Source: Candidatus Levyibacteriota bacterium
Lineage (GTDB): Bacteria; Patescibacteriota; Microgenomatia; Levybacterales; UBA12049
Direction: 5' to 3'
Assembly (NCBI GenBank): GCA_052034235.1
Contig: JBPOIT010000009.1
Location: 136,203 to 200,202, forward strand
Length of the DNA: 64,000 nucleotides
The notes under the pieces are model-generated. The model saw only the letters and a program-made list of their open reading frames with translations, ran no database searches and was not told where the DNA came from. Each line of letters begins with the position of its first letter. Within the stretch, counting starts at the first letter, position 1. The translations under genes were made by a program, and so were the position numbers. This document shows positions 193-16,426 of this stretch, one piece after another.

Positions 193-633
193 ATGAAAAT
201 CCTTAATAAAAAAGCAGGTTTTGATTATCAATTGCTTGAATCCTTTGAAGCAGGTATTCATCTATTTGGAGCAGAAGTAAAAGCAGCAAGAGCTGGCAAT
301 ATTGATTTGCATGGGAGTTTTGCCAGAATTATCGGTAGTGAGATCTATTTACTTAACGCAAAAATCCTTCCGTATAAATTTGCACGTCCTGAATCTTTTG
401 ATGCCACACGTACACGAAAATTACTTCTGCATAAAAAACAAATCGTCTCTTTAAAGTCAAAAATTATCGGAGCGAATTTGACAATAGTGCCTGTTTCCAT
501 GTATACTAAGGGCAATCTAATCAAGCTCGAGCTAGCCTTGGCGAAGTCTCGAAAAAAGTTTGAAAAGAAAGAGCTTCTTAAGAAGCAGGACCTTGACAGA
601 GAAATAGCAGAATCGTTAAAAGGAAACTACTAA
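193..633 (+). CDS. smpB: SsrA-binding protein SmpB
   Basis: 146 aa; SmpB-like motifs (KKAGFDYQLLESFEAGIHLFGAEVKA...FDATRTRKLLLHKKQI); directly upstream of the tmRNA gene. Confidence 0.9.
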   Translation: MKILNKKAGFDYQLLESFEAGIHLFGAEVKAARAGNIDLHGSFARIIGSEIYLLNAKILPYKFARPESFDATRTRKLLLHKKQIVSLKSKIIGANLTIVPVSMYTKGNLIKLELALAKSRKKFEKKELLKKQDLDREIAESLKGNY

Positions 634-698: not shown

Positions 699-1122
699 GG
701 GGGATGACTTGATTCGACGGGAGAAGTACTTTAAAATTGCAAGCCGACGATGATTCATAGTCGTTAAAAAGGATCAAAAAATAAATGCTAAATCTAGCAT
801 TACAAGCCTAGATGAGAAGCTCGCTAAGCTTCAAGCTCAGTGGGACGCTCTTAATCAAGGCGGCCAACGCGCTTACGCACTCGCTGCTTAAGCCGTAAAG
901 CCAGTTCATACATGTCTTTCCTTATCGGGACAGTAGGGGCTAAAAAACAGGTGAGGAAAACTGTAAAAAGTCAGGTTACGCTTTTTACTGTACACAGTAG
1001 CCTATACTTTGTTATTCCGTCCGACAGGAAACGGCAAAGCGAATTCTAAGAGTCGGATAAGCTTGTAGACGTTTTACATTATCTCTATCCGGACTCCGGT
1101 TCATAACCGGACATCTCCACAC
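699..1122 (+). ncRNA. ssrA: tmRNA (ssrA), not in the ORF track
   Basis: 5' GGGGGATGACTTGATTCGACGGG matches the canonical tmRNA 5' tRNA-like end. 3' T-arm TCCGG-TTCATAA-CCGGA (1094-1110) and acceptor 3' strand CATCTCC (1112-1118) pair with 5' GGGGATG including a G3:U wobble (alanine identity). Internal tag frame ends ...GGQRAYALAA-TAA at 889-891. Confidence 0.85.
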
Positions 1123-2874: not shown

Positions 2875-3180
2875 TTATTTTCCTAAAATTTCATTCTCTA
2901 AGAACTCTGCAAGTTCTTTTTTATTTACAATTTCTTCATTGATTTTCCACCTAAGTCTTCCGTCCTGATCTCTTCCTGCTGGAACAATAATAGGTTCATC
3001 AGGAAACTTCATTCTTCTTAATGTACTGATTTGTCCTTTCAGTTCCGACTCTGCTGTACTGGTAGAATCCGAAATCTCATTTAATTCCAAAGCAACTGCA
3101 CCAGTTACTGCCAACGTGTGAAGAAAGGAGAGGAGGTCTATTCTAAGATGTCGTAATTTATCTTTAGTCTGTTTATCCAT
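2875..3180 (-). CDS. hypothetical protein (island cargo)
   Basis: 101-aa ORF with no recognisable motif. Confidence 0.4.
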   Translation of the reverse strand: MDKQTKDKLRHLRIDLLSFLHTLAVTGAVALELNEISDSTSTAESELKGQISTLRRMKFPDEPIIVPAGRDQDGRLRWKINEEIVNKKELAEFLENEILGK

Positions 3181-3340
3181 GCACGTATTCTACAATAACA
3201 GACATATCGCGTCAAGTCGTAATCTATCGTAACCTATTGTAGGAATTAGTTTTCTAAAGCGGCTTTTTTGTTGCGTAAACTGATCTCTTTTTAGTTATGT
3301 TAGCTACAAATTTGTCTTTAGTTTCTGCAACAAATTGAAC

Positions 3341-3904
3341 CTAGGCGTTGCCTTCAGGCCTAGCAGTTGCAGGAAATGTTCTTGGTAAGTCATGGGGCAA
3401 GCCTACTCTCATGAACTGCTTGGCAAAGGCTTGTGCTAAATGCTCTCTGTAAGGAGGAAGTAATCTTACTCTCGTACCATAGGATCCCTTGAAAACTTTT
3501 AAGAATGAATAAGGAACTGTATATATCTGCTTGAGAACTACTCTTTGATAATTAAAACTGTGCCAACGATGCTGATGTTGATTAATAATTCTTGAAGCTA
3601 CAATTTCTTCTTTAACCATTGGCTCCCAGTCGCTTTCGGACATCTTTCCCCCCTGAATTTGTTCTGGAATATCAAACATAGGACATAAAACAACTGTCCC
3701 ATCGGTTCGGTTCATCTTTAACAAATCACATGATTGGGATAAAACGATGACACTTGCTGATTCTTCATCTATTGTGACGGTTTCGCCAGTCTGCGCATCA
3801 TTCGTATACCGCGGAACATATATTGGAAAGTTAAAGAAAATGTCTCCCTGCTCTAGTTGGGTATCTGCTCGTACAACTTTATACCATGGATATGTGTTTG
3901 GCAT
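3341..3904 (-). CDS. hypothetical protein, third gene of the three-gene operon
   Basis: 187 aa; 2-nt gap from the upstream gene; no recognisable family. Confidence 0.55.
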   Translation of the reverse strand: MPNTYPWYKVVRADTQLEQGDIFFNFPIYVPRYTNDAQTGETVTIDEESASVIVLSQSCDLLKMNRTDGTVVLCPMFDIPEQIQGGKMSESDWEPMVKEEIVASRIINQHQHRWHSFNYQRVVLKQIYTVPYSFLKVFKGSYGTRVRLLPPYREHLAQAFAKQFMRVGLPHDLPRTFPATARPEGNA

Positions 3905-3906
3905 TT

Positions 3907-4440
3907 TTAGTCTCCATATTCTCTGTCCTCATCTTTAACAGCAAGTGCGCCAAGTTTACCAGATTTGTTGATTCTTATACCCGACCTTACCTTAGTAAGT
4001 TTTATATATGTCATCGCATCAATTTCATAATCTTCATATAGGCGTTTTTGAGGAGTAGCAACAGGATAATCAAATGCTTTTGCAAGAGTAATATATGTGT
4101 CAAACGCGAATGGAGTAGGAGATGCTATTGTCGTAACCATTGCATAACTTCCAGCATTTCCTTCCCATTCGACCCATCCTCTTTGACGAGCTTCTGTTAC
4201 AGGTAAAGATGCAGTATGTTCGTAAGCGGTTTGTGCATCGTCAGACAAGCCAATGAGAATACTACCTCCAGAATACTGCATATGTCCCAATGGATTAACA
4301 ATCGGTGCCGTGGCTGCAAAATCAGTATGATCTTGAGAATAGGGCTGAGCATGAACAGAAGACAAACTAGAACCGATATTCTCCTTACTTGCCAAATGCT
4401 CCATATATAATTTACTGTAATCTCGATAGTCTGCTAACAT
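3907..4440 (-). CDS. hypothetical protein, second gene of the three-gene operon
   Basis: 177 aa; 2-nt gaps on both sides. Confidence 0.55.
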   Translation of the reverse strand: MLADYRDYSKLYMEHLASKENIGSSLSSVHAQPYSQDHTDFAATAPIVNPLGHMQYSGGSILIGLSDDAQTAYEHTASLPVTEARQRGWVEWEGNAGSYAMVTTIASPTPFAFDTYITLAKAFDYPVATPQKRLYEDYEIDAMTYIKLTKVRSGIRINKSGKLGALAVKDEDREYGD

Positions 4441-4442
4441 AT

Positions 4443-5246
4443 TTATTTATCGTGTTCTGCTAATGATGAAAACCACTTTTTAGCGACACCATGAGAATTG
4501 TCCAACCACTTCTTAAAAGCATCTTCATCGTAGTAGTCTGGACATTCATTGTTATTTGAAACTATTTCATTATCAAATACAATGTGCTTGATCTCTTTTT
4601 CAATCCCTTTATTGTCTTTCTCTTTCTTATATCCTGTTGCAACCCTAAGTATACCTTGTGCTTTCGGTGTTTCTAATTTAAAAACGGTCGAGAAGTTGAT
4701 ATCTTGTACAGGAGTTGTTGTTGCATCATCCGATGGAATTCCTATTGGTAGCTGGACATGATAATTTAGCTTATCTTTTAATAAAGCAAATAAATCTTCT
4801 TTCTCATCAAATAGAATTGCATTTCTGTATCGGAGTGAGATAGCTTCTGGCTTTAATTTTGTACTTTCATATGCTTTTATGAGCTTTTTTCTCAGGAATA
4901 AAGCATTGTCTAGAAATGACTTCCAGTCGTAGTTCTCCGTATAGTTTAATGTTGAGACACCAGGTCCAAGTTGAACTAAAGGCCATCCATTAATCCCTCC
5001 CGTTCTAAATTGATAGCGTGGTATAAATGGCAGGAGTTCCAACGGGGCATCGTTTTCTTTTGTAGGAACAGCCGAACTAAATCTGTCTTTAACTCCTTCT
5101 GCGAACATTCCCAAAGCAATAGGGAAAGTTACATCCTTTTGGAATGCAGGGTTTTGACTACTTTTTTCTAGCTGCCAACGTATGGATAACCATGCTTCTT
5201 GTAAGGGACTTTTTTCATCTTTTGTAGAAGACTTTTTCATATTCAT
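4443..5246 (-). CDS. hypothetical protein, first gene of the three-gene operon
   Basis: 267 aa; sigma70-like promoter immediately upstream. Confidence 0.55.
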   Translation of the reverse strand: MNMKKSSTKDEKSPLQEAWLSIRWQLEKSSQNPAFQKDVTFPIALGMFAEGVKDRFSSAVPTKENDAPLELLPFIPRYQFRTGGINGWPLVQLGPGVSTLNYTENYDWKSFLDNALFLRKKLIKAYESTKLKPEAISLRYRNAILFDEKEDLFALLKDKLNYHVQLPIGIPSDDATTTPVQDINFSTVFKLETPKAQGILRVATGYKKEKDNKGIEKEIKHIVFDNEIVSNNNECPDYYDEDAFKKWLDNSHGVAKKWFSSLAEHDK

Positions 5247-5262
5247 GTTAGTTTACAAATGT

Positions 5263-5291
5263 ATTATACAGGGAATTGTGATTTATTCCAA
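5263..5291 (-). promoter_or_regulatory. sigma70-like promoter for the 4443-5246 operon (-35 TTGGAA, 17-nt spacer, extended -10 TGTATAAT)
   Basis: Minus strand reads TTGGAAtaaatcacaattcccTGTATAAT, ending about 16 nt before the ATG; short leader with no SD. Confidence 0.4.
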
Positions 5292-5428
5292 GCCTAGCTT
5301 TACTTAACAAAACATTAAGTTGTCTTTCAAATACTCTTTTTCGGCACATGACTAATTATTCGTTTTGCCAATAATGATGAGCCAAATCGCATTGTGGGGC
5401 TTTAGAAGTGATAGTGACAACAGTCTAT

Positions 5429-6079
5429 TTAGAAGCCGTAGGAATCAACATCTTCAAACTTATCAGTGATAACACCATTGCCAGTCTTCACAATTTCATT
5501 CCCTTTCCTAACGGTGTAGGTAAACTTTGTTATGCCACTTGCCCCATGGACACTTGTTGGACCAGTATTCGCATCCATATTTACTGATGTTCCTAGCTCT
5601 GGTTCAATGGCTTTGGTTGTACTGAAAGCATCTCCAGCGATAGGGTTCTTTAGCTCACTGGTAAAAAGAGCAATGGATACGCTGCCTTCAAAGGGTTTGG
5701 TATCTTTATTCCTGATGTCAAAGAAGTATCTGTATTTGCCATCAACTTTCTTCACAATTTGACTGGTAACAACGATATTATACTTCTCAACAGGCTTAGG
5801 TGTGTTTGTTGGAGCTGCTGCATTCATACCATCTTGAAATGATTTAGCTGCAGAGTTTTGTTGACTTCCTGTGGTGGTAGCTTTATTGTCATTACTTGAT
5901 CCCACGATAAGAACAAATCCCCAAAGTGCAGCAATGACAACAAGACGTACTACCTTATTCCATTTTTGTCTCCAAATCAGACGAGTGAGATAGCCCATCA
6001 AGAAAAGCGGAAAGGACAGGACAATCAACAGAATGCCCCATTTGGTTTTATACCATTTCTTTTTCATTTCAGTACTCAT
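5429..6079 (-). CDS. membrane-anchored protein with an extracytoplasmic domain
   Basis: 216 aa; N-terminal TM helix (WGILLIVLSFPLFLMGYL and VVIAALWGFVLIV), then a Ser/Thr-rich linker and a beta-rich domain. Confidence 0.5.
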   Translation of the reverse strand: MSTEMKKKWYKTKWGILLIVLSFPLFLMGYLTRLIWRQKWNKVVRLVVIAALWGFVLIVGSSNDNKATTTGSQQNSAAKSFQDGMNAAAPTNTPKPVEKYNIVVTSQIVKKVDGKYRYFFDIRNKDTKPFEGSVSIALFTSELKNPIAGDAFSTTKAIEPELGTSVNMDANTGPTSVHGASGITKFTYTVRKGNEIVKTGNGVITDKFEDVDSYGF

Positions 6080-6144: not shown

Positions 6145-6411
6145 ATGAATCCAAAAAATCTCGCTAACGAGAATACACCAGAAAATAGAAGAAAGGAAAA
6201 GCGTGAATTTGCTGTAGCAATTGGTAAGCATCTACGCAAGATTAGAGAAGCAAGGAATATAAGCCAAGAGCAGCTCTCTGTGAAAGCTGGATATTACCAT
6301 ACCTATGTCAATAAAATTGAGCAAGGCAAGTACTCTCCAAGTATGCACACAATATGGAGACTCTCTCATACCTTGGGGTTATCTCTGGACGATTTTTTCA
6401 GCGAGTTTTAA
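6145..6411 (+). CDS. XRE-family helix-turn-helix transcriptional regulator
   Basis: HTH_XRE signature IGKHLRKIREARNISQEQLSVKAGYYHTYVNKIEQGKYSPSMHTIWRLSHTLGLSLDDFF; internal ATG at 6145 preferred over the ORF-track start 6109; divergent from the membrane protein gene. Confidence 0.75.
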   Translation: MNPKNLANENTPENRRKEKREFAVAIGKHLRKIREARNISQEQLSVKAGYYHTYVNKIEQGKYSPSMHTIWRLSHTLGLSLDDFFSEF

Positions 6412-6487: not shown

Positions 6488-7276
6488 CTATTTTGGTTTT
6501 GGAATCTCTTGTGTTGCTTTAGGAGAAACAATTGATTTTCGAAAGTCCTGCAGACTTTTTTCAGCAGCTTTTATTGCCTCTTCATGTTCTTCCATTTCCT
6601 CTTTTGAATATTCTTTTGCTACCCAATCGCTTCCATTTTTCACCAAGGACATCATTTGAATGGGATCAGAAACGCCTCCAGGACTTACAGAAATAGCATG
6701 ACGTAACGTCCAAAAAGTAGCAAAGATTGCCTCATTGATATTTGGTGGACAATCACCATCCCAAAAGACTCTCCTAATAAGTCCCAAAAAGGGGTCAGCG
6801 ATAGCTTGTCCACTCCCAATACTTGCAAAAGGTAGGTCATCATTAGTTTCCTCTGGTGATCCTTGATGATCAAATTGAAACAAAGAGGATTTATGTTTTA
6901 TAGGAAGAGCTACAAGTGTGGAACATAAAGCGCTCTGTGTTGCCACGCCATTGCCCAATACCGGGGCAGAAATACGAGCTGTTTCCAGTTCAGGTAAAAT
7001 ATGATTTCTAAACTTTTGACTTATAATAGTCATTGCTTCAAAAGGAACTTTGCCAGATAAGCCTCCTGCTTGATAGAGTTTATCCATTTCACCCTTTAAT
7101 CTTTGACCCAAACCTACTGGGCCGGATACACCAACGATAATTTGATCTTGCAAAATCGAAAGTTTTTTTGTAGGCTGCATTGCGGTAGGTGTACCAAGCG
7201 CACCGAAAGTAGCAGCACCATCTGCGCCCATCACGATACTACCATCTTTACATTTTATTCCAATAATAAGAGTCAT
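6488..7276 (-). CDS. HslV/proteasome-beta family Ntn-hydrolase homolog with an ~80-aa C-terminal extension
   Basis: 262 aa; N-terminus MTLIIGIKCKDGSIVMGADGAATFG...KKLSIL...IIVGVSGPVGLG and later FASIGSGQ align with HslV [23 protein letters not shown]...KKVRRL...VIAGFAGGTADA...IAIGSGG; 8-nt gap to the upstream Panacea-like gene. Confidence 0.65.
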   Translation of the reverse strand: MTLIIGIKCKDGSIVMGADGAATFGALGTPTAMQPTKKLSILQDQIIVGVSGPVGLGQRLKGEMDKLYQAGGLSGKVPFEAMTIISQKFRNHILPELETARISAPVLGNGVATQSALCSTLVALPIKHKSSLFQFDHQGSPEETNDDLPFASIGSGQAIADPFLGLIRRVFWDGDCPPNINEAIFATFWTLRHAISVSPGGVSDPIQMMSLVKNGSDWVAKEYSKEEMEEHEEAIKAAEKSLQDFRKSIVSPKATQEIPKPK

Positions 7277-7284
7277 TCTGCCTA

Positions 7285-7758
7285 TTAATCCCTAAATACA
7301 CTATTTTTTTTGTATTCGGGGAATTCTTTATAAACTGAGGAGACAAGCTCCTGAAAAGATAAGGGAAGCATCCAATCAATCAACTGCTTTAAATATTTAG
7401 TTGCTTCCTCTGTCACCTGTTCGTGTAATTCTTTAGCTCGTTTCTTGCCGCTGCTTGTTATGTTGTATTTACGTCCAGCACTTTGGGCGGAATGAGTCTC
7501 GACATATCCTTCCTTTTTCAAAAGGTCTGCATCGTGGTATATCCCTATATCAAAAGGGCCATAATTATACGCAACAAAATGGTAGAAATCTTTGGTCTCT
7601 TTGGGCATGGCATGATGCAATAAAAATAAGGACTTTTGGAGTTTTACTGGTGTAAGGCCAGTTTTATCTGCTTCCGCAATAACTAATAAGGTCCAGTCTT
7701 TTCTCTCAATATTCATTGGGACAATTGTATCATATACGGATAACTGCCACCGGTGCAA
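7285..7758 (-). CDS. Panacea (DUF4065, PanA/SocA-like) domain protein
   Basis: 157 aa; GLTPVKLQKSLFLLHH ... FVAYNYGPFDIGIYHD resembles Panacea-domain consensus (KLQKLLYF...W.YGPV.P.VY). Confidence 0.55.
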   Translation of the reverse strand: MHRWQLSVYDTIVPMNIERKDWTLLVIAEADKTGLTPVKLQKSLFLLHHAMPKETKDFYHFVAYNYGPFDIGIYHDADLLKKEGYVETHSAQSAGRKYNITSSGKKRAKELHEQVTEEATKYLKQLIDWMLPLSFQELVSSVYKEFPEYKKNSVFRD

Positions 7759-7837
7759 CAGGGAACGAGTACATGTACTGTATGCAAATAAATGTGTAGT
7801 GCCAAAAATTACTGACTGCAGTGAAAACTTTCTGGCA

Positions 7838-8206
7838 CTACAAAAATCTTCTTATTACTTCTTTTCTGCTTTGACATTCAAGTAAGCAAGTTTTATCTCG
7901 CTCAATTATTTTATTCATCTTTGTCGTTATATTATTAACCGTATCGTAAGCCGAGATCATAGTAAAGGGGTGCTTACCAGTTTTTAAAAAATCATCCAGT
8001 CTTTTTTCATCTCTTGAAAGCGCTGCTAATAATGCTGCTGCTTCTCGTTCAGTAAATGCGAAAAGCTCAGGAACAGTTTTACATCTACCCAATTTTAGCA
8101 ATGTTTTCCTCTTTATTTTATTATCTTTGCGATAATTTGCTACAAGGTAATATAACAACCTTTCTCGTTCATGAAAAATTGATTTTTTTGTAATGATAAA
8201 TGCCAT
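7838..8206 (-). CDS. hypothetical protein
   Basis: 122-aa ORF, first gene of the minus-strand trio 8206->6488. Confidence 0.4.
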   Translation of the reverse strand: MAFIITKKSIFHERERLLYYLVANYRKDNKIKRKTLLKLGRCKTVPELFAFTEREAAALLAALSRDEKRLDDFLKTGKHPFTMISAYDTVNNITTKMNKIIERDKTCLLECQSRKEVIRRFL

Positions 8207-8363: not shown

Positions 8364-8404
8364 TGTCCACCAATAAAGCCGCAGTAATGCGGCTTTTTTT
8401 GTGG
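8364..8404 (+). repeat. hairpin-containing ~40-nt repeat, copy 1 (orphan terminator-like: AAAGCCGCA-GTAA-TGCGGCTTT followed by a 7-nt T-run)
   Basis: tgtccaccaataaagccgcagtaatgcggctttttttgtgg; no co-directional gene ends here; near-identical copy at 11033-11075. Confidence 0.5.
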
Positions 8405-8496: not shown

Positions 8497-9534
8497 ATGG
8501 ATACGAAAAGTAAAATTCTTGAGATAGCATCAAAGGAAACAAAATTTAAAACGTCAGATGTTGTGAAATCGTTGCGTGGAAATGTATCAAGACAATTTAT
8601 AAGCTACGAGATAAATAATCTAGTAAAACAGGGCATACTTGTAAAAGGTGGTTCTACTAAAAACTCATTTTATACGTTACCCTCAAATGCAATTGTTCTT
8701 GGAACTAAATTTCATAAACGGTTAACGAATAAAGATCTCAAGGAACATGAGGTATTTGATAAATTGCAGCATCAAACTACTTTCATTGAAAATTTAAGAG
8801 AAAATGTATATAGCATTCTTGCATATGCATTCTCTGAGATGCTGAACAATGCGATAGAACACTCAGAATCAAAATATATTGAAGTCTCTGTCGAAAAAAT
8901 ACAAGATAATTTTGTTTTTGTTGTAGATGATTTTGGAATTGGAGTTTTTAGAAATGTGATGAATAAAAGAAAACTTAATTCTGAAATTGAAGCAATACAA
9001 GATCTTCTAAAAGGTAAAACAACAACACAACCACAAGCGCATTCAGGAGAAGGGATATTCTTTACGTCAAAAGCTGCAGATGTATTTATATTGGAAAGCT
9101 TTGGATACAGATTGAGAATAGATAATGTAATAAACGACATCTTTCTAGAAGAATTAAAACCATCAAAACAAGGAACTAGAGTTACTTTTACCATTTCGAT
9201 AAACTCAAAAAGACATCTAAATAAGATTTTTAAGGACTATCAAACTGATCCTGAAGAAATGGCTTTTGATAAAACAGAAGTCAAAGTGAGACTTTACACA
9301 ATGGGAACAATTTATATTTCGCGCTCTCAAGCTAGAAGAGTATTAACAGACTTAGAAAAATTTCGATCAGTTATTCTTGACTTCGATAAAGTTCCGACCA
9401 TTGGACAAGCATTTGCAGATGAAATTTTTAGAGTATTTCAGACAAAACATCCAGAAATAACAATAAAGCCAATCAATATGAATGATGCAGTTTCTTTTAT
9501 GATAGGTCGTGTAGAAAAACTAAACTCTGATTAG
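8497..9534 (+). CDS. wHTH - GHKL (HATPase_c-like) ATPase - STAS-like (DUF4325-like) three-domain protein
   Basis: 345 aa; Bergerat-fold motifs N-box EMLNNAIEH, G1 DDFGIG, G2 SGEGIFF; C-terminal RRVLTDLEKFRSVILDFDKVPTIGQAFADEIF resembles a STAS/anti-sigma-antagonist fold. Confidence 0.55.
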   Translation: MDTKSKILEIASKETKFKTSDVVKSLRGNVSRQFISYEINNLVKQGILVKGGSTKNSFYTLPSNAIVLGTKFHKRLTNKDLKEHEVFDKLQHQTTFIENLRENVYSILAYAFSEMLNNAIEHSESKYIEVSVEKIQDNFVFVVDDFGIGVFRNVMNKRKLNSEIEAIQDLLKGKTTTQPQAHSGEGIFFTSKAADVFILESFGYRLRIDNVINDIFLEELKPSKQGTRVTFTISINSKRHLNKIFKDYQTDPEEMAFDKTEVKVRLYTMGTIYISRSQARRVLTDLEKFRSVILDFDKVPTIGQAFADEIFRVFQTKHPEITIKPINMNDAVSFMIGRVEKLNSD

Positions 9535-9795: not shown

Positions 9796-10887
9796 TCACC
9801 GCGGTTTATATTTTAACTTTTGCACTGGATTATCAATAAGCAGAAGTAGCATAATTGATGCAATAACCGTTACAATAATAATCGTCAAACTAAAAAGAGG
9901 ATTTTGCATAGCAAAATTAAGGTAATAAGTATTATAAATCTGGATTACAAATATATGTGTTATATACATTGGATAGGATAAACGGCCCACAAAATTATCC
10001 ACCTTGCTCAATTTTGTAAGCTTAAAAATAAATGGAATAGATACTACTAGGAGAATATATAACAGTATACGAAATGGATTATAGGTGTATAAATCTATTC
10101 CTGGAATTTGTGAATAGAAGACAATACTAAAAACGAGGGTTGCAAACAGAATCCATGGAATTTTTGACGGTACATGTTTCAATCGTATATACCTATACAG
10201 TAAATATGAATAATGCCCAGCGAGGAAAAAACAAATTTCAGCTGGGAAGAAACGATAAGGCCACGGTTCAAAAGTTAAACCTATTACATAGAGAAAACAT
10301 TTTATAAAAAGACTTAGTGAAAAAACAGTGAGAATAAATTTCCATCCGCGTTTAAAGATAAACGGAGCAATCACATAAAAACTTAACTCTATTCCAAGGG
10401 TCCAAGCCTGTGGAACAAAAAGAAAACTTTCCAGCCAGATTTTTGTCGTAGTATATTGCTGCGTAAAAAACAGTAATCCGGTATGAGTATTTAAACTCAT
10501 AAAAAAGAGCATGTCTTGACCAAAAAGAAATAAATTTGTAAATATAAAATAAAGTAAGGTCAAAGGATTCATATAAGGTATATATGTAATATAGGCAATG
10601 AAATGATTATCTAAATGTGCAAAATGCCAAAATAATGAGGTTATAAATACCATCAGAAGTACTGTCCAGTACATCGGATACAATCGCAAGAATCTGTTTT
10701 TCAGAAAGTGTATATAGGTCTTCTGGCCTTTATTATATTTTTCATGCAAGACTAGAGACATATAAAACCCAGAAAGGATAAAAAATGATTCGACAGCAGT
10801 CATACCTCCTACTAATTTAACACCAAAAATTGGCAATGTATGTCCAACTATTACAGCCACTGCAAGCAAAAAACGTATTAATCCCAT
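9796..10887 (-). CDS. acyltransferase family 3 (OafA/YrhL-like) membrane O-acyltransferase
   Basis: Multi-TM protein with FFILSGF motif; the ORF-track start 11031 probably over-extends, internal start MGLIRFLLAVAVIVGH at 10887 preferred. Confidence 0.7.
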   Translation of the reverse strand: MGLIRFLLAVAVIVGHTLPIFGVKLVGGMTAVESFFILSGFYMSLVLHEKYNKGQKTYIHFLKNRFLRLYPMYWTVLLMVFITSLFWHFAHLDNHFIAYITYIPYMNPLTLLYFIFTNLFLFGQDMLFFMSLNTHTGLLFFTQQYTTTKIWLESFLFVPQAWTLGIELSFYVIAPFIFKRGWKFILTVFSLSLFIKCFLYVIGLTFEPWPYRFFPAEICFFLAGHYSYLLYRYIRLKHVPSKIPWILFATLVFSIVFYSQIPGIDLYTYNPFRILLYILLVVSIPFIFKLTKLSKVDNFVGRLSYPMYITHIFVIQIYNTYYLNFAMQNPLFSLTIIIVTVIASIMLLLLIDNPVQKLKYKPR

Positions 10888-11032
10888 GTGAATTGAGTTT
10901 AGCAGACGAATATAGCGTATGTATATCGGAATGCCAATCGGCACCGTAACACTGATCGTATATGGTTGTTCACGAGCATCGGAAAAAATACCATATACAT
11001 CCTTTCCAATATATTTCAGATTTGTCCACATA

Positions 11033-11075
11033 ATTAAGCCGCAGTAATGCAGCTTTTTTATTGGTATAATAGATT
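11033..11075 (+). repeat. hairpin-containing ~40-nt repeat, copy 2 (tgtccacataattaagccgcagtaatgcagcttttttattgg)
   Basis: About 38 of 42 nt identical to 8364-8404, same orientation, one stem mismatch. Confidence 0.5.
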
Positions 11076-14050: not shown

Positions 14051-14914
14051 GTGTATAATGAAACAATGTGGTTGTCTTTACTCTCACTTCATTTGGTAGG
14101 AAATGTTGGCTACAATTTGCTTCTTAGAAAGTCAGTCCTCGCAAAAACTGATAAATGGTTACTCGCCACTATCCTTCAAACAGGGATTGCCATTCCAGCT
14201 TTAATCATAACTCTTTTTAAACCATTCAATTTTTCAGGTTTTAATGATTTTGATATTTTTTTGTTTATCAGTACGATGACTTTAACGATTCTTTTGCAAG
14301 TGTTAAATGTTAAAGCATTGCAGTATCTTGAAGCAAGTGTCTATTCCGTCGTTTATAATACTCGAATTATTCTCATTTCTATTATCGGAACATTACTGTT
14401 GGCCGAAAAATTAACGCCTTTACAAATTATTGGCGGTTTGCTCATTTTTGGTTCTGTTTTTATTGTTAGACAAAAAGAAAAATTTACTGTCACAAAAATC
14501 GGTTTGCTATACGGTTTTGGAGCTGCATTGACGTTGAGTTTTCTTAACGTAACAGAAAAACTTTTAAATCAGAGTGTTGGATTTTTTGAATATTTTTTAC
14601 CTGAATCTATTGCGTGTGCTGTTATTATGTGGGTAATCGTCATAATCCGAAAGACAAAAGTATCCTCGACGCTTTTTACAAAACCCTCAAATATTTTTCT
14701 GATGGGTTTTCGTGCATTATCTGCATTTGGTTTTTCAGCGGCGATTATTTATGGGCCTGTTGCGCTTTCAAATTACATAGCTAGTTTGATCGTTGTTTTG
14801 ACGGTTATTTGTGGTGTACTTTTTCTAAACGAACGCGATTATCTGAAATCAAAAATAATTGCAGCTAGCATTGCCTTTATTGGTTTAACATGTATTTTAT
14901 TTGCAGGATTTTAA
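14051..14914 (+). CDS. DMT/EamA-like 10-TM transporter (possible lipid-linked sugar flippase; inference)
   Basis: 287 aa, two similar ~140-aa hydrophobic halves; embedded between GT-C paralogs. Confidence 0.45.
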   Translation: MYNETMWLSLLSLHLVGNVGYNLLLRKSVLAKTDKWLLATILQTGIAIPALIITLFKPFNFSGFNDFDIFLFISTMTLTILLQVLNVKALQYLEASVYSVVYNTRIILISIIGTLLLAEKLTPLQIIGGLLIFGSVFIVRQKEKFTVTKIGLLYGFGAALTLSFLNVTEKLLNQSVGFFEYFLPESIACAVIMWVIVIIRKTKVSSTLFTKPSNIFLMGFRALSAFGFSAAIIYGPVALSNYIASLIVVLTVICGVLFLNERDYLKSKIIAASIAFIGLTCILFAGF

Positions 14915-16426
14915 ATGCAAAAAATATTACTTTCTCTCTGCTGCATTGTACTTTTTTTACTACTTTTCGTGGGGGTTTTTCATCCTATAAAATCAATTAA
15001 TGAAGATTTAGGTAGGCATTTGCTCCTCGGAGAAATCATTAGTCAGACAGGAAATGTTCCAACAATTAATCTTCTTTCTTATACCTATCATGACTACCCG
15101 TTTATTAATTCTCATTGGCTTTCCGAGGTTGTTTTTTACCAAGTAGTAAGCAGGGGAGGATTTGTGATGTTACTATTTTTCACAACTATGCTAACTGTTG
15201 TTTCCTTTTCCTTACTTTTTACTTTCGCGAGTAAACATTATGCTTTATCATATAGTTTATTAACGGGTGTTGTCTTACTGCCTGTTATTTTGAGAAGGAG
15301 TGAAATACGTCCTGAAGTTTTCAGTTTTTTCTTTGAAGCAATTTTTCTCCTGATTCTTTTTACTTATAGATCTAAATATACGAAATGGATTTATCTTCTT
15401 ATTCCGTTGCAAATACTTTGGGTTAATATGCATATCTATTTTGTGATAGGAATAATTCTTATCATAATCTTTCTTTTTGATTTACTTGTTAGACAAAAAT
15501 TTCATTTAAATTATAAAACAAAGGTATTAACTTTTGTTTTTCTTATTACTGTATTAAGTACTCTCTTTAATCCGAATGGTATACATGGTTCACTTTTCCC
15601 TTTTTTCGTTTTGCAAAATTATGGAATGCCCATTCTTGAGAATCAAAGTATTTTTCTCATCACTAATCAAAATCATATCTTTCAACTTGCGTATAGCGTG
15701 CTAATCATCATCGCAGTATTCATGGCCCTTTTCTTAAACAGAAAAAAGACTTCTTCGAGTGATTGGCTACTGGTTATCGTTTTTTCAATTTTGGCGTTTA
15801 CTGCTGTTCGAAATATTCCTCTTTATGCATATGCAGTGTATGTGCCATTAACTGCTTTATTTTCCAGATACATACCTTTAGTGGGTAAGATCTTCTCAAA
15901 TATTTATTCAAAAACGTTTGTAAAATCACTCAAACTATTTTCTCTCTCTATGCTCATCATTTTTTTAATATTCTATCTTTTTACTATTTCGACAACACGT
16001 CCTTTTGGATTCGGTGTTATTGAAAATGCAAAAGGAAGCGCTGATTTTTTTCTCAAAAACAAGTTACAAGGTCCCATGTTTAATAATTTCAATACGGGCA
16101 GTTATTATGCTTACAGATTTTATCCCAAAGAAAAAATATTTGTTGATGGAAGACCTGAGGCGTATCCAAAAGCATTTTTTGAAGATATCTATCTTCCGAT
16201 GAGAAGAAATCCTCAAATGTTTGCAAAACAAATGAAGGTGTATGATTTTAATACGATCATTATTTCAGACTGGAAATATGGCGGAGTAGAAAAGAACGTT
16301 ATTGAAATGTTGCAAAATGACAAGAGGTACGCATTAGTATATCTTGATGAACATGAATTAATTTTTGTAAAACGAATTACGGAGCATACAGAAGTTATAT
16401 CTCATTACGCTATCGAAAATGAATAA
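14915..16426 (+). CDS. polytopic membrane protein, GT-C-like glycosyltransferase (paralog 3)
   Basis: 503 aa; DLGRH, HWLSEVVFYQ, WVNMHIYF, QGPMFNNFNTGSYYAYRFYP...IFVDGRPEAYP. Confidence 0.6.
   Translation: MQKILLSLCCIVLFLLLFVGVFHPIKSINEDLGRHLLLGEIISQTGNVPTINLLSYTYHDYPFINSHWLSEVVFYQVVSRGGFVMLLFFTTMLTVVSFSLLFTFASKHYALSYSLLTGVVLLPVILRRSEIRPEVFSFFFEAIFLLILFTYRSKYTKWIYLLIPLQILWVNMHIYFVIGIILIIIFLFDLLVRQKFHLNYKTKVLTFVFLITVLSTLFNPNGIHGSLFPFFVLQNYGMPILENQSIFLITNQNHIFQLAYSVLIIIAVFMALFLNRKKTSSSDWLLVIVFSILAFTAVRNIPLYAYAVYVPLTALFSRYIPLVGKIFSNIYSKTFVKSLKLFSLSMLIIFLIFYLFTISTTRPFGFGVIENAKGSADFFLKNKLQGPMFNNFNTGSYYAYRFYPKEKIFVDGRPEAYPKAFFEDIYLPMRRNPQMFAKQMKVYDFNTIIISDWKYGGVEKNVIEMLQNDKRYALVYLDEHELIFVKRITEHTEVISHYAIENE

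Follow-up and report, generated by a model that had tools for sequence, protein, structure and literature searches.

What is a proteasome-type protease doing beside a relative of antitoxins, on an integrative element and with no unfoldase gene nearby? The question is raised by two adjacent genes in a 64,000-nucleotide (nt) stretch of contig JBPOIT010000009.1 from a Candidatus Levyibacteriota bacterium; this stretch was analysed at its full length and is called the window below, and the coordinates and strands in Table 1 refer to it. An earlier note, made from the letters of the DNA, had described an HslV-like protease of 262 amino acids (aa) coupled to a Panacea-domain protein, and had considered a toxin-antitoxin module, an abortive-infection module or an antitoxin-regulated protease. 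The reading favoured by our analysis, at a probability of about 0.45, is that a protease serves as the effector of a PanAT-like cassette for toxin-antitoxin action or abortive infection, the unit being a self-contained, horizontally mobile pair of genes for a Panacea-domain antitoxin and a swappable partner.

The 262-aa protein scored above the threshold of the Pfam Proteasome family PF00227 (35 bits, cut-off 22.4, E value 1.4e-8), and matches to the same family were precomputed for most of its homologs. Profile alignment to archaeal proteasome beta subunits placed T2 at Thr1, D19 at Asp17, K38 at Lys33 and G49/G52 at Gly47, the last falling in a conserved GxSGxxG stretch of the protease, and aligned Gly154-Ser155-Gly156 with the Gly128-Ser129-Gly130 loop. 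Across 28 homologs (47–80 % identity), T2, D19, K38, G49/G52, G154 and G156 do not vary and S155 is kept in at least 90 %, bearing out the alignment from a Thr2 nucleophile through a GSG loop that had been proposed previously. The protein begins Met-Thr, without a propeptide, the gene is under purifying selection and the catalytic set is complete; the protease is thus predicted from its sequence to be catalytically competent.

The HslV label did not survive comparison with the HslV equivalog models TIGR03692 and NF003964, which returned 13.9 and 13.4 bits, respectively, against cut-offs of 157.75 and 137. Sequence profiles ranked archaeal beta subunits (8.5e-7) ahead of HslV (8e-4), and the match to the PHROG 'HslV family' was weak (8.4e-6). 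An AlphaFold2 model (predicted local distance difference test score, pLDDT, 89.5; predicted template modelling score 0.86) displays the alpha-beta-beta-alpha sandwich of N-terminal nucleophile hydrolases, i.e. the proteasome fold, and Foldseek matched it equally to 20S alpha and beta subunits (E value ~1e-12). Its closest fold relatives are Anbu and the 20S subunits. The model contains an unusually long helix at residues 78–116 (H2) and, after the last two strands, an Anbu-like C-terminal helix at 225–249 followed by a less ordered, flexible tail with a conserved [IV]PxP motif, in which P259 is invariant. The true C-terminal extension (~223–262, helix plus tail) is therefore ~40 residues and not the ~80 first estimated, the remaining extra length over HslV being internal, e.g. 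in helix 78–116. When 1.84 billion representative proteins were searched exhaustively, 527 clusters (50 % identity) lay at E ≤ 1e-30, and relaxing the limit to E ≤ 1e-3 raised the count to only 1411. The family is thus a fairly large one that stands well apart from canonical proteasomes. Because the equivalog scores lie far below cut-off and both fold and profiles are nearer archaeal beta, Anbu and 20S subunits, we take the protein, as far as sequence and predicted structure can tell, to be a T1 protease of a separate family and not HslV.

Placing the second protein, of 143 aa, was less straightforward, and the Panacea/DUF4065 assignment made earlier fared differently by method: it fell short in Pfam (SocA_Panacea PF13274, 17.3 bits against a gathering cut-off of 25.7) and was upheld by profile–profile and structural evidence. 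Among the homologs, 10 of 40 matched PF13274 at E < 0.1 (best 2.5e-4, all under the cut-off), and one homolog cluster (P0180) bears a precomputed match. The best model match was PADLOC PDC-M19A (3.5e-17, positions 7–125 of a 294-position model), followed among PADLOC models by 'Specificity_I' (a fused HsdS C-terminus, 2.9e-12) and DarG (8.6e-5), with a generic LmuC model also matched; phrog_14939 gave 7e-15, and the NCBIfam SocA antitoxin model gave 2.1e-5 at a score of 24 against an equivalog cut-off of 190. The AlphaFold2 model (pLDDT 94.2) found its best solved-structure match in chains B and D (187–188 residues) of 7yk3, a DarTG complex, at a marginal level of similarity (E value 6.7e-4, template modelling (TM) score 0.52–0.55, 15–16 % identity). 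From their length, we infer these chains to be the DarG C-terminal domain, the one relative whose structure is solved, to which DUF4065 proteins are homologous at a likewise marginal level and which binds and inhibits its cognate toxin DarT (PMC13621843).

A tblastn search of annotated plasmids revealed haloarchaeal and Sulfolobus relatives of the small protein (27–33 % identity), whose labels in the Prokaryotic Genome Annotation Pipeline (PGAP) include 'type II toxin-antitoxin system antitoxin SocA domain-containing protein' and 'DUF4065 domain-containing protein'. With hhalign, alignment to one of these (WP_049938427.1, a PGAP 'SocA domain-containing antitoxin') was full length (98.6 %, E value 9e-16, 145 columns). 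The conserved motifs are TPVQLQKSLFLL, YNYGPF and LSFxELVxxIYxxYPEYKxNSVF, and YNYGPF occupies the position of the Panacea 'GPV' signature (PMC8832971). A search with the alignment profile of the family gave 2082 matches, of which the top 120 all belong to the same tight family. On account of the SocA, DarG and PDC-M19A models, the marginal 7yk3 fold match and the hhalign result, we accept the 143-aa protein as a divergent member of the Panacea superfamily, with the qualification that its Pfam score falls short. As a separate observation, plasmid NC_012624.1 of Sulfolobus islandicus Y.N.15.51 carries a Panacea-like domain (14651–14998; 33 % identical over 87 % of the query) inside an annotated restriction endonuclease subunit S, in agreement with the PADLOC 'Specificity_I' match.

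A survey of co-occurrence, which the earlier note had called for, found the two genes together almost without fail. Scanning a single genome for each GTDB species with a degenerate pattern yielded 61 loci, 59 of them with a protease match, and the Panacea-like gene lies immediately 5′ of the protease gene on the same strand in 57 of these 59; the two unpaired loci are a contig end and a gene fragment. The same order was seen in all three IMG/VR contigs recovered, and seeding from the Panacea side returned a Proteasome-family gene directly downstream in four of four long contigs. Most intergenic gaps range from -8 to +25 nt, with 4-nt overlaps frequent. This order and spacing, with the antitoxin-like gene first, is that of type II toxin-antitoxin operons, and the 8-nt spacing found in the window is consistent with a bicistronic arrangement; the pair is probably translationally coupled. 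Co-inheritance is indicated by a correlation between the pairwise identities of one protein and those of the other (r 0.68, or 0.45 without near-identical pairs; Mantel p 0.001).

All-against-all clustering of neighbours showed only the protease and Panacea-like clusters to be conserved, plus an IS1595 transposase that flanks the pair in 8 loci; no third conserved gene emerged from it. The Anbu locus is an operon with ATP-grasp, transglutaminase-like and alpha-E domain genes, and these are absent among the conserved neighbours here. The statement that no HslU accompanies the protease holds more widely than first made: there is no Clp/HslU-type Walker A (GP[TS]GxGK[TS]-like pattern) anywhere in the window, and Pfam scans at 53 non-redundant loci, taking in the nearest two genes on either side, found no AAA+ unfoldase, nor did the gene tables for another 7 loci show one. 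Apparent natural Panacea–protease fusions, and N-terminal domains on long 'pan' open reading frames (ORFs), proved to be ORF-calling artefacts in GC-rich DNA. Two loci in Acidobacteriota metagenome-assembled genomes (MAGs) carry inserts, one of 1.46 kb with a 434-aa ORF that separates the two genes (L026, 4537–6000), the other of ~1.7 kb within the protease gene near residue 221, the Panacea-like gene being intact (L035, 6672–8435).

The distribution of the pair is sporadic and extends over roughly a dozen phyla. The loci span the candidate phyla radiation (CPR; Berkelbacteria, Zambryskibacteria, Woesebacteria, Saccharimonadales), Acidobacteriota, Chloroflexota, Dehalococcoidia, Planctomycetota, Gemmatimonadota, Latescibacterota, KSB1, Thermodesulfobacteriota, Spirochaetota and others, as well as Alpha- and Gammaproteobacteria and the betaproteobacterial isolate Piscinibacter caeni; among metagenome matches, a Heimdallarchaeaceae (Asgard) MAG has both proteins under consecutive locus tags. 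Relatives of 50–60 % identity occur in unrelated phyla. A Latescibacterota MAG (CBDCJO01) holds three identical copies of the cassette (L015, L016 and L018) within a repeat of at least 6 kb, where a fragment of a DDE_3 transposase and genes for a nucleoside 2-deoxyribosyltransferase-like protein and a DUF4326 protein are also found. The earlier note had allowed that the protease might be a conserved core gene with an HslU partner elsewhere; because its distribution is sporadic, with several copies in some genomes and transposases adjacent, it is not a core gene. Two phage-like IMG/VR contigs carry the pair inside a head-morphogenesis module, directly before the portal gene in one (L064, 1561–4977; phrog_156, 6.6e-138) and two genes after the major head/protease gene in the other (L065, 5770–8765; phrog_4523, 1.2e-94). 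Neighbours elsewhere include DNA methylases, parts of type I, II and III restriction-modification systems, MADS components, AbiEii-like ATPases, integrases, ArdC and recombinases.

In the nearest annotated relatives, the partner is a different one. Haloarcula marismortui plasmid pNG400 (L073, 2474–3488) and a plasmid of Halorussus salilacus (L075, 2468–3544) carry two-gene modules in which the relative of the Panacea-like gene is followed, 7–8 nt 3′ of it, by genes for proteins of 164 and 194 aa, respectively; these match neither the protease profile, nor each other, nor any solved structure. Two other relatives instead have an overlapping HTH or TrmB gene directly 5′. Partner swapping defines Panacea antitoxins (PMC8832971). 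Given the swapped haloarchaeal partners, the protease therefore sits in the 'toxin slot', and the 164- and 194-aa proteins may themselves be undescribed PanT-type toxins.

The cassette reading starts from what was observed directly: the identities of the two proteins, the intact catalytic residues, the reciprocal linkage and gene order, the mobility of the pair and the swapping of partners in the nearest annotated relatives of the Panacea-like protein. In the mechanism we propose, the two genes would be co-transcribed and translationally coupled, and the 143-aa protein would bind the protease directly, likely at its C-terminal helix and [IV]PxP tail or at its active-site face, holding it inactive or unassembled. 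If the Panacea-like protein were lost or triggered, by element loss or phage infection, the Thr1 protease would be freed to cut cellular or phage proteins independently of an ATPase, resulting in growth arrest or abortive infection, by which the carrier element would be stabilised or the population protected. Physical binding, inhibition, toxicity and trigger are proposed by analogy with stand-alone Panacea antitoxins, which neutralise via direct binding (PMC10440598; PMC8832971), and with one precedent, Rrp, a proteasome-like hydrolase that a mobile genetic element carries and that has ATPase-free activity and slows the growth of E. coli (bioRxiv 10.64898/2026.08.10.744006). In a bolder version, which we hold tentatively and with less conviction, a Panacea-type sensor would gate a proteasome relative that is minimal and works with no ATPase, a weapon in the service of mobile elements and phages. 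A less conventional variant would make the Panacea-like protein a substrate receptor and the pair a two-protein device for targeted degradation.

Several observations weigh against a cassette of this kind. The score of the Panacea-like protein lies under Pfam's cut-off, and the protease matches none of the models in PADLOC-DB v2.0.0. Recognisable defence genes stand beside a minority of loci only, and many loci sit amid ordinary metabolic genes. No copies of the protease were found in 72,556 PLSDB plasmids or 50,697 INPHARED phages, and no match to the Panacea-like partner was found among sequenced phages. Broken copies offer no clear toxin-antitoxin signature either: the protease gene is frameshifted or truncated at L047, L059, L061 and L071, the Panacea-like gene at L042 and both at L054, so that, with the L035 insertion included, the protease is broken beside an intact partner in 5 loci and the reverse holds in 1, an asymmetry that is not significant because the gene lengths differ and some breaks are possibly (long-read) assembly errors. 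Self-compartmentalised proteasome homologs without an unfoldase are, moreover, usually harmless, and toxicity is thus not an obvious expectation.

Two alternatives keep the protease at work for its carrier or its host. By analogy with SocA, a founding Panacea protein and a proteolytic adaptor for ClpXP (PMC8832971), the small protein could be a substrate receptor or activator for a dedicated protease in a module that is not itself toxic; such a module might serve the element or phage, which could use it, for instance, to break down a defence or repressor protein of the host or for the processing of one specific target. This would suit the strict and exclusive protease link within the present Panacea-like subfamily, the head-morphogenesis setting of the phage-contig copies and the resemblance to docking motifs of the protease's flexible [IV]PxP tail and its partner's conserved NSVF tail, and proteasome homologs can be specific, as are connectase and Rrp (PMC7980362; bioRxiv 10.64898/2026.08.10.744006). 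We consider it the main rival, though less likely than the cassette: the tested Panacea proteins other than SocA neutralise through direct binding with no protease needed, the unrelated non-protease partners of the nearest annotated relatives are better explained by an antitoxin that changes toxins, and no conserved third gene is available as a substrate. Housekeeping quality control, in which an ATP-independent proteasome-like particle, gated by the small protein or chaperoned by it during assembly, would clear unfolded proteins, is improbable. Clearance without ATP is a role that Fuchs et al. propose for orphan proteasome homologs (PMC8665760), several loci lie amid metabolic genes and the fold is nearest Anbu and 20S subunits, down to the Anbu-like C-terminal helix; however, a housekeeping role sits poorly with the spread over more than 10 phyla and the 50–60 % identical relatives in unrelated ones, with multi-copy and transposase-flanked loci, with carriage on integrative elements and phage contigs, with frameshifted or interrupted copies and with a partner homologous to antitoxin domains.

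The other two alternatives concern what the proteins are. It is very doubtful that the small protein is a plain winged-helix transcription factor (PadR/MarR-like) of the protease gene, its likeness to Panacea being a shared winged-helix core. Residues ~57–95 do draw weak PadR, EarA and MarR matches, some plasmid relatives carry the PGAP labels 'PadR family' or 'HTH regulator' and an inverted repeat lies 5′ of the gene, but MarR/PadR regulators rank well behind 7yk3 in Foldseek (E value 0.03–0.1, TM 0.3–0.45), the best full-length matches are SocA, DarG and DUF4065, and the invariant LQK, YGPF and C-terminal NSVF fall outside a recognition helix. The median isoelectric point of the small protein is, furthermore, only 7.9 (5.5 for the protease, values that are not discriminating), and autoregulation by Panacea is argued against by Ernits et al. 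(PMC10440598). The idea of an ordinary HslV with its HslU gene at some other place in the genome is effectively refuted. The Thr1 chemistry is shared, there is the weak PHROG match and the local search for HslU covers the 64-kb window only; against this stand the equivalog scores (13–14 bits where 137–158 are needed), the nearer archaeal beta, Anbu and 20S subunits, the length of 262 aa with added helix and tail, the lack of an HslU/AAA+ gene beside any of more than 65 loci and the mobile, sporadic distribution. The toxin-antitoxin or abortive-infection cassette thus remains the reading that we prefer.

At the locus itself, three minus-strand ORFs lie head to tail (8206–7838, 122 aa; 7758–7285, 157 aa; 7276–6488, 262 aa), with positions and an 8-nt spacer identical to those first reported (Table 1). 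The 157-aa ORF assigned to the Panacea-like gene does exist, as the mechanical ORF with a TTG start at 7758, but its product is probably shorter: an independent gene call on a Logan assembly contig (SRR34217540), which carries an identical protease gene, starts at the ATG at 7716, and homologs measure 140–150 aa. For these reasons, the gene most likely starts at ATG 7716 and encodes 143 aa. Upstream, an inverted repeat with 11-nt arms, AGTGCCAGAAA (7839–7829) and TTTTTGGCACT (7808–7798), accompanies a sigma-70-like candidate site, TTGGCA-17-TACAGT, at 7805–7777 (consensus scan). From sequence features of this sort, the region is probably the pair's own promoter/operator or else the terminator of the 122-aa gene. 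The 122-aa gene, which the earlier note had counted as preceding the protease–PanA-like module, is outside the conserved unit: it has no family match in four libraries and no homolog across the 61 related loci, and an 80 %-identical pair in L066 has no such gene alongside.

Table 1. Features at and around the protease–Panacea-like gene pair (positions in the 64,000-nt window)
Feature	Position	Strand	Basis
Proteasome-family (MEROPS T1-type) N-terminal-threonine protease, 262 aa	6488..7276	-	ORF + Pfam
Divergent Panacea/DUF4065 (SocA / DarG-C-terminal-like) protein, 143 aa from ATG 7716	7285..7716	-	Homology + gene caller
8-nt intergenic spacer, Panacea-like gene / protease gene	7277..7284	-	Sequence read
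Intergenic region 5′ of Panacea-like gene: inverted repeat + sigma-70-like site	7777..7839	-	Consensus scan + sequence read
122-aa ORF 5′ of pair, outside conserved unit	7838..8206	-	No family match
XRE-type HTH regulator, 88 aa by gene caller, convergent with protease gene	6145..6411	+	Pfam HTH_3, 3.6e-15
smpB	193–633		
tmRNA gene	700–1122	+	Rfam RF00023, 109 bits
Large serine recombinase gene, 515 aa	1085–2632	-	Resolvase, Recombinase, Zn_ribbon_recom domains
TIGR04255-family protein, island cargo	4443–5246	-	9.6e-21

The ssrA island recognised at the outset is real. A serine-recombinase integrative element inserted at ssrA carries the pair as cargo at its far end, as the layout both here and in a second genome attests. 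The serine recombinase gene overlaps the tmRNA 3′ end by 38 nt; ARAGORN called no tmRNA, a result overturned by Rfam. Read along the minus strand, the order is the 122-aa gene, the pair, the convergent XRE gene, five genes that are small or unknown and include a TIGR04255-family member, the recombinase and ssrA. Another MAG (L067), with a 62 %-identical pair, has the same layout of pair, convergent XRE gene, small genes and serine recombinase. The convergent XRE/HTH gene is retained in both L067 and L066, the closest relatives, and an HTH gene adjoins the pair in only a few of the 61 loci; the XRE regulator is probably the repressor of the carrier element and not a core part of the pair. The closest relatives are MAGs of the CPR. 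No duplicated attachment sequence of the tmRNA 3′ end was found elsewhere in the window, and for a serine recombinase, a long attachment-site repeat need not be expected.

Besides the TIGR04255 protein, the minus-strand cargo at 2875–6079 comprises proteins of 101, 187, 177 and 216 aa without a family match; for the 216-aa product, a Berkelbacteria locus (L001) encodes a weak homolog (1.2e-8). Beyond the 122-aa gene, two terminator-like hairpins (8372–8404 and 11032–11064), 88 % identical, bracket a plus-strand gene for a 345-aa HATPase_c and DUF4325 (STAS-like) protein (8497–9534) and a minus-strand acyltransferase-3 gene (9796–11031). GC content falls from 0.38 to 0.31–0.33 across 8–16 kb of the window.

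We found no description of a Panacea-type two-gene module with a proteasome-family partner in the literature searched, and such a partner appears to be unprecedented. Full-text searches in which Panacea or DUF4065 was paired with any of proteasome, HslV, Anbu and threonine protease returned nothing relevant, those for 'YwgA' and 'PDC-M19' nothing useful, and no paper or PADLOC model searched links the two proteins, in keeping with the initial impression that this is not a described system. The cassette would matter to both the proteasome-evolution and the toxin-antitoxin/defence fields. It gives orphan proteasome homologs a strict context, with one obligate partner that is homologous to cognate-binding antitoxins; Fuchs, Alva and Lupas (2021) described 22 orphan families and stated them to be without genomic context hinting at function (PMC8665760). 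Should the bolder, sensor-gated version be true, none of these families would have had a functional context before, and the pair would be the first toxin-antitoxin or abortive-infection conflict system with a proteasome-family protease as effector. The cassette would likewise add a new effector chemistry, of the Thr1 proteasome type, to Panacea partners, and would connect SocA, the sole known protease-linked Panacea protein, to a dedicated protease. CPR-like genomes hold very few accessory genes, and carriage on an ssrA element suggests a role in stabilising that element.

Among known systems, PDC-M19 is represented here by a match to the N-terminal half of its component A model only; the protease finds no counterpart among PADLOC models, so that PDC-M19 is not what the pair represents. 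The DarTG system differs in that the cassette has neither a macrodomain nor DarT. Anbu, 20S alpha and beta subunits, HslV and BPH share only 12–20 % identity with the protease; the cassette lacks the Anbu operon, HslU and a 20S alpha subunit, and has instead the elongated H2 helix, the [IV]PxP tail and the Panacea-like partner.

Descriptions in the work of Fuchs et al. come closer. Compared by descriptions only, WPH and PHI (representatives WP_040339656.1 and WP_012956871.1, respectively; PMC8665760) are likewise sporadic and widespread in bacteria and archaea, resemble both alpha and beta subunits, lack an AAA+ partner, are predicted to end in a coiled-coil-like C-terminal helix and have a helical region beyond H1/H2 that is longer. 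Their 2021 set very likely included the present protease family, probably as WPH or PHI to judge from these descriptive features. Rrp (SP_1145 of Streptococcus pneumoniae TIGR4), also likened by description, is a proteasome/Anbu-like N-terminal nucleophile hydrolase on a mobile element that is ATPase-free and slows E. coli; however, it measures 44.8 kDa with extra domains, and no Panacea-like neighbour is mentioned (bioRxiv 10.64898/2026.08.10.744006).

The two remaining comparisons concern the Panacea side. In the type VI system SocAB of Caulobacter, a Panacea-family protein is likewise functionally tied to a self-compartmentalised protease, but SocA delivers the toxin SocB to housekeeping ClpXP, whereas the protease here is of the proteasome type and encoded by the adjacent gene; there is no SocB-like gene, and the SocA model score is far below its cut-off. 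The likeness to PanAT (PMC8832971; PMC10440598) extends further, taking in a small stand-alone Panacea-like protein encoded first, a partner gene 8 nt downstream, a patchy mobile distribution, nearest relatives with unrelated partners and YGPF at the position of the GPV signature. No proteasome-type partner was found among the PanT partners in the available parts of the PanAT and NetFlax papers and supplements (PMC8832971; PMC10440598). The present pair differs from PanAT in its Panacea-like protein, which falls under the Pfam threshold, and above all in the partner, a 262-aa protease of the proteasome family.

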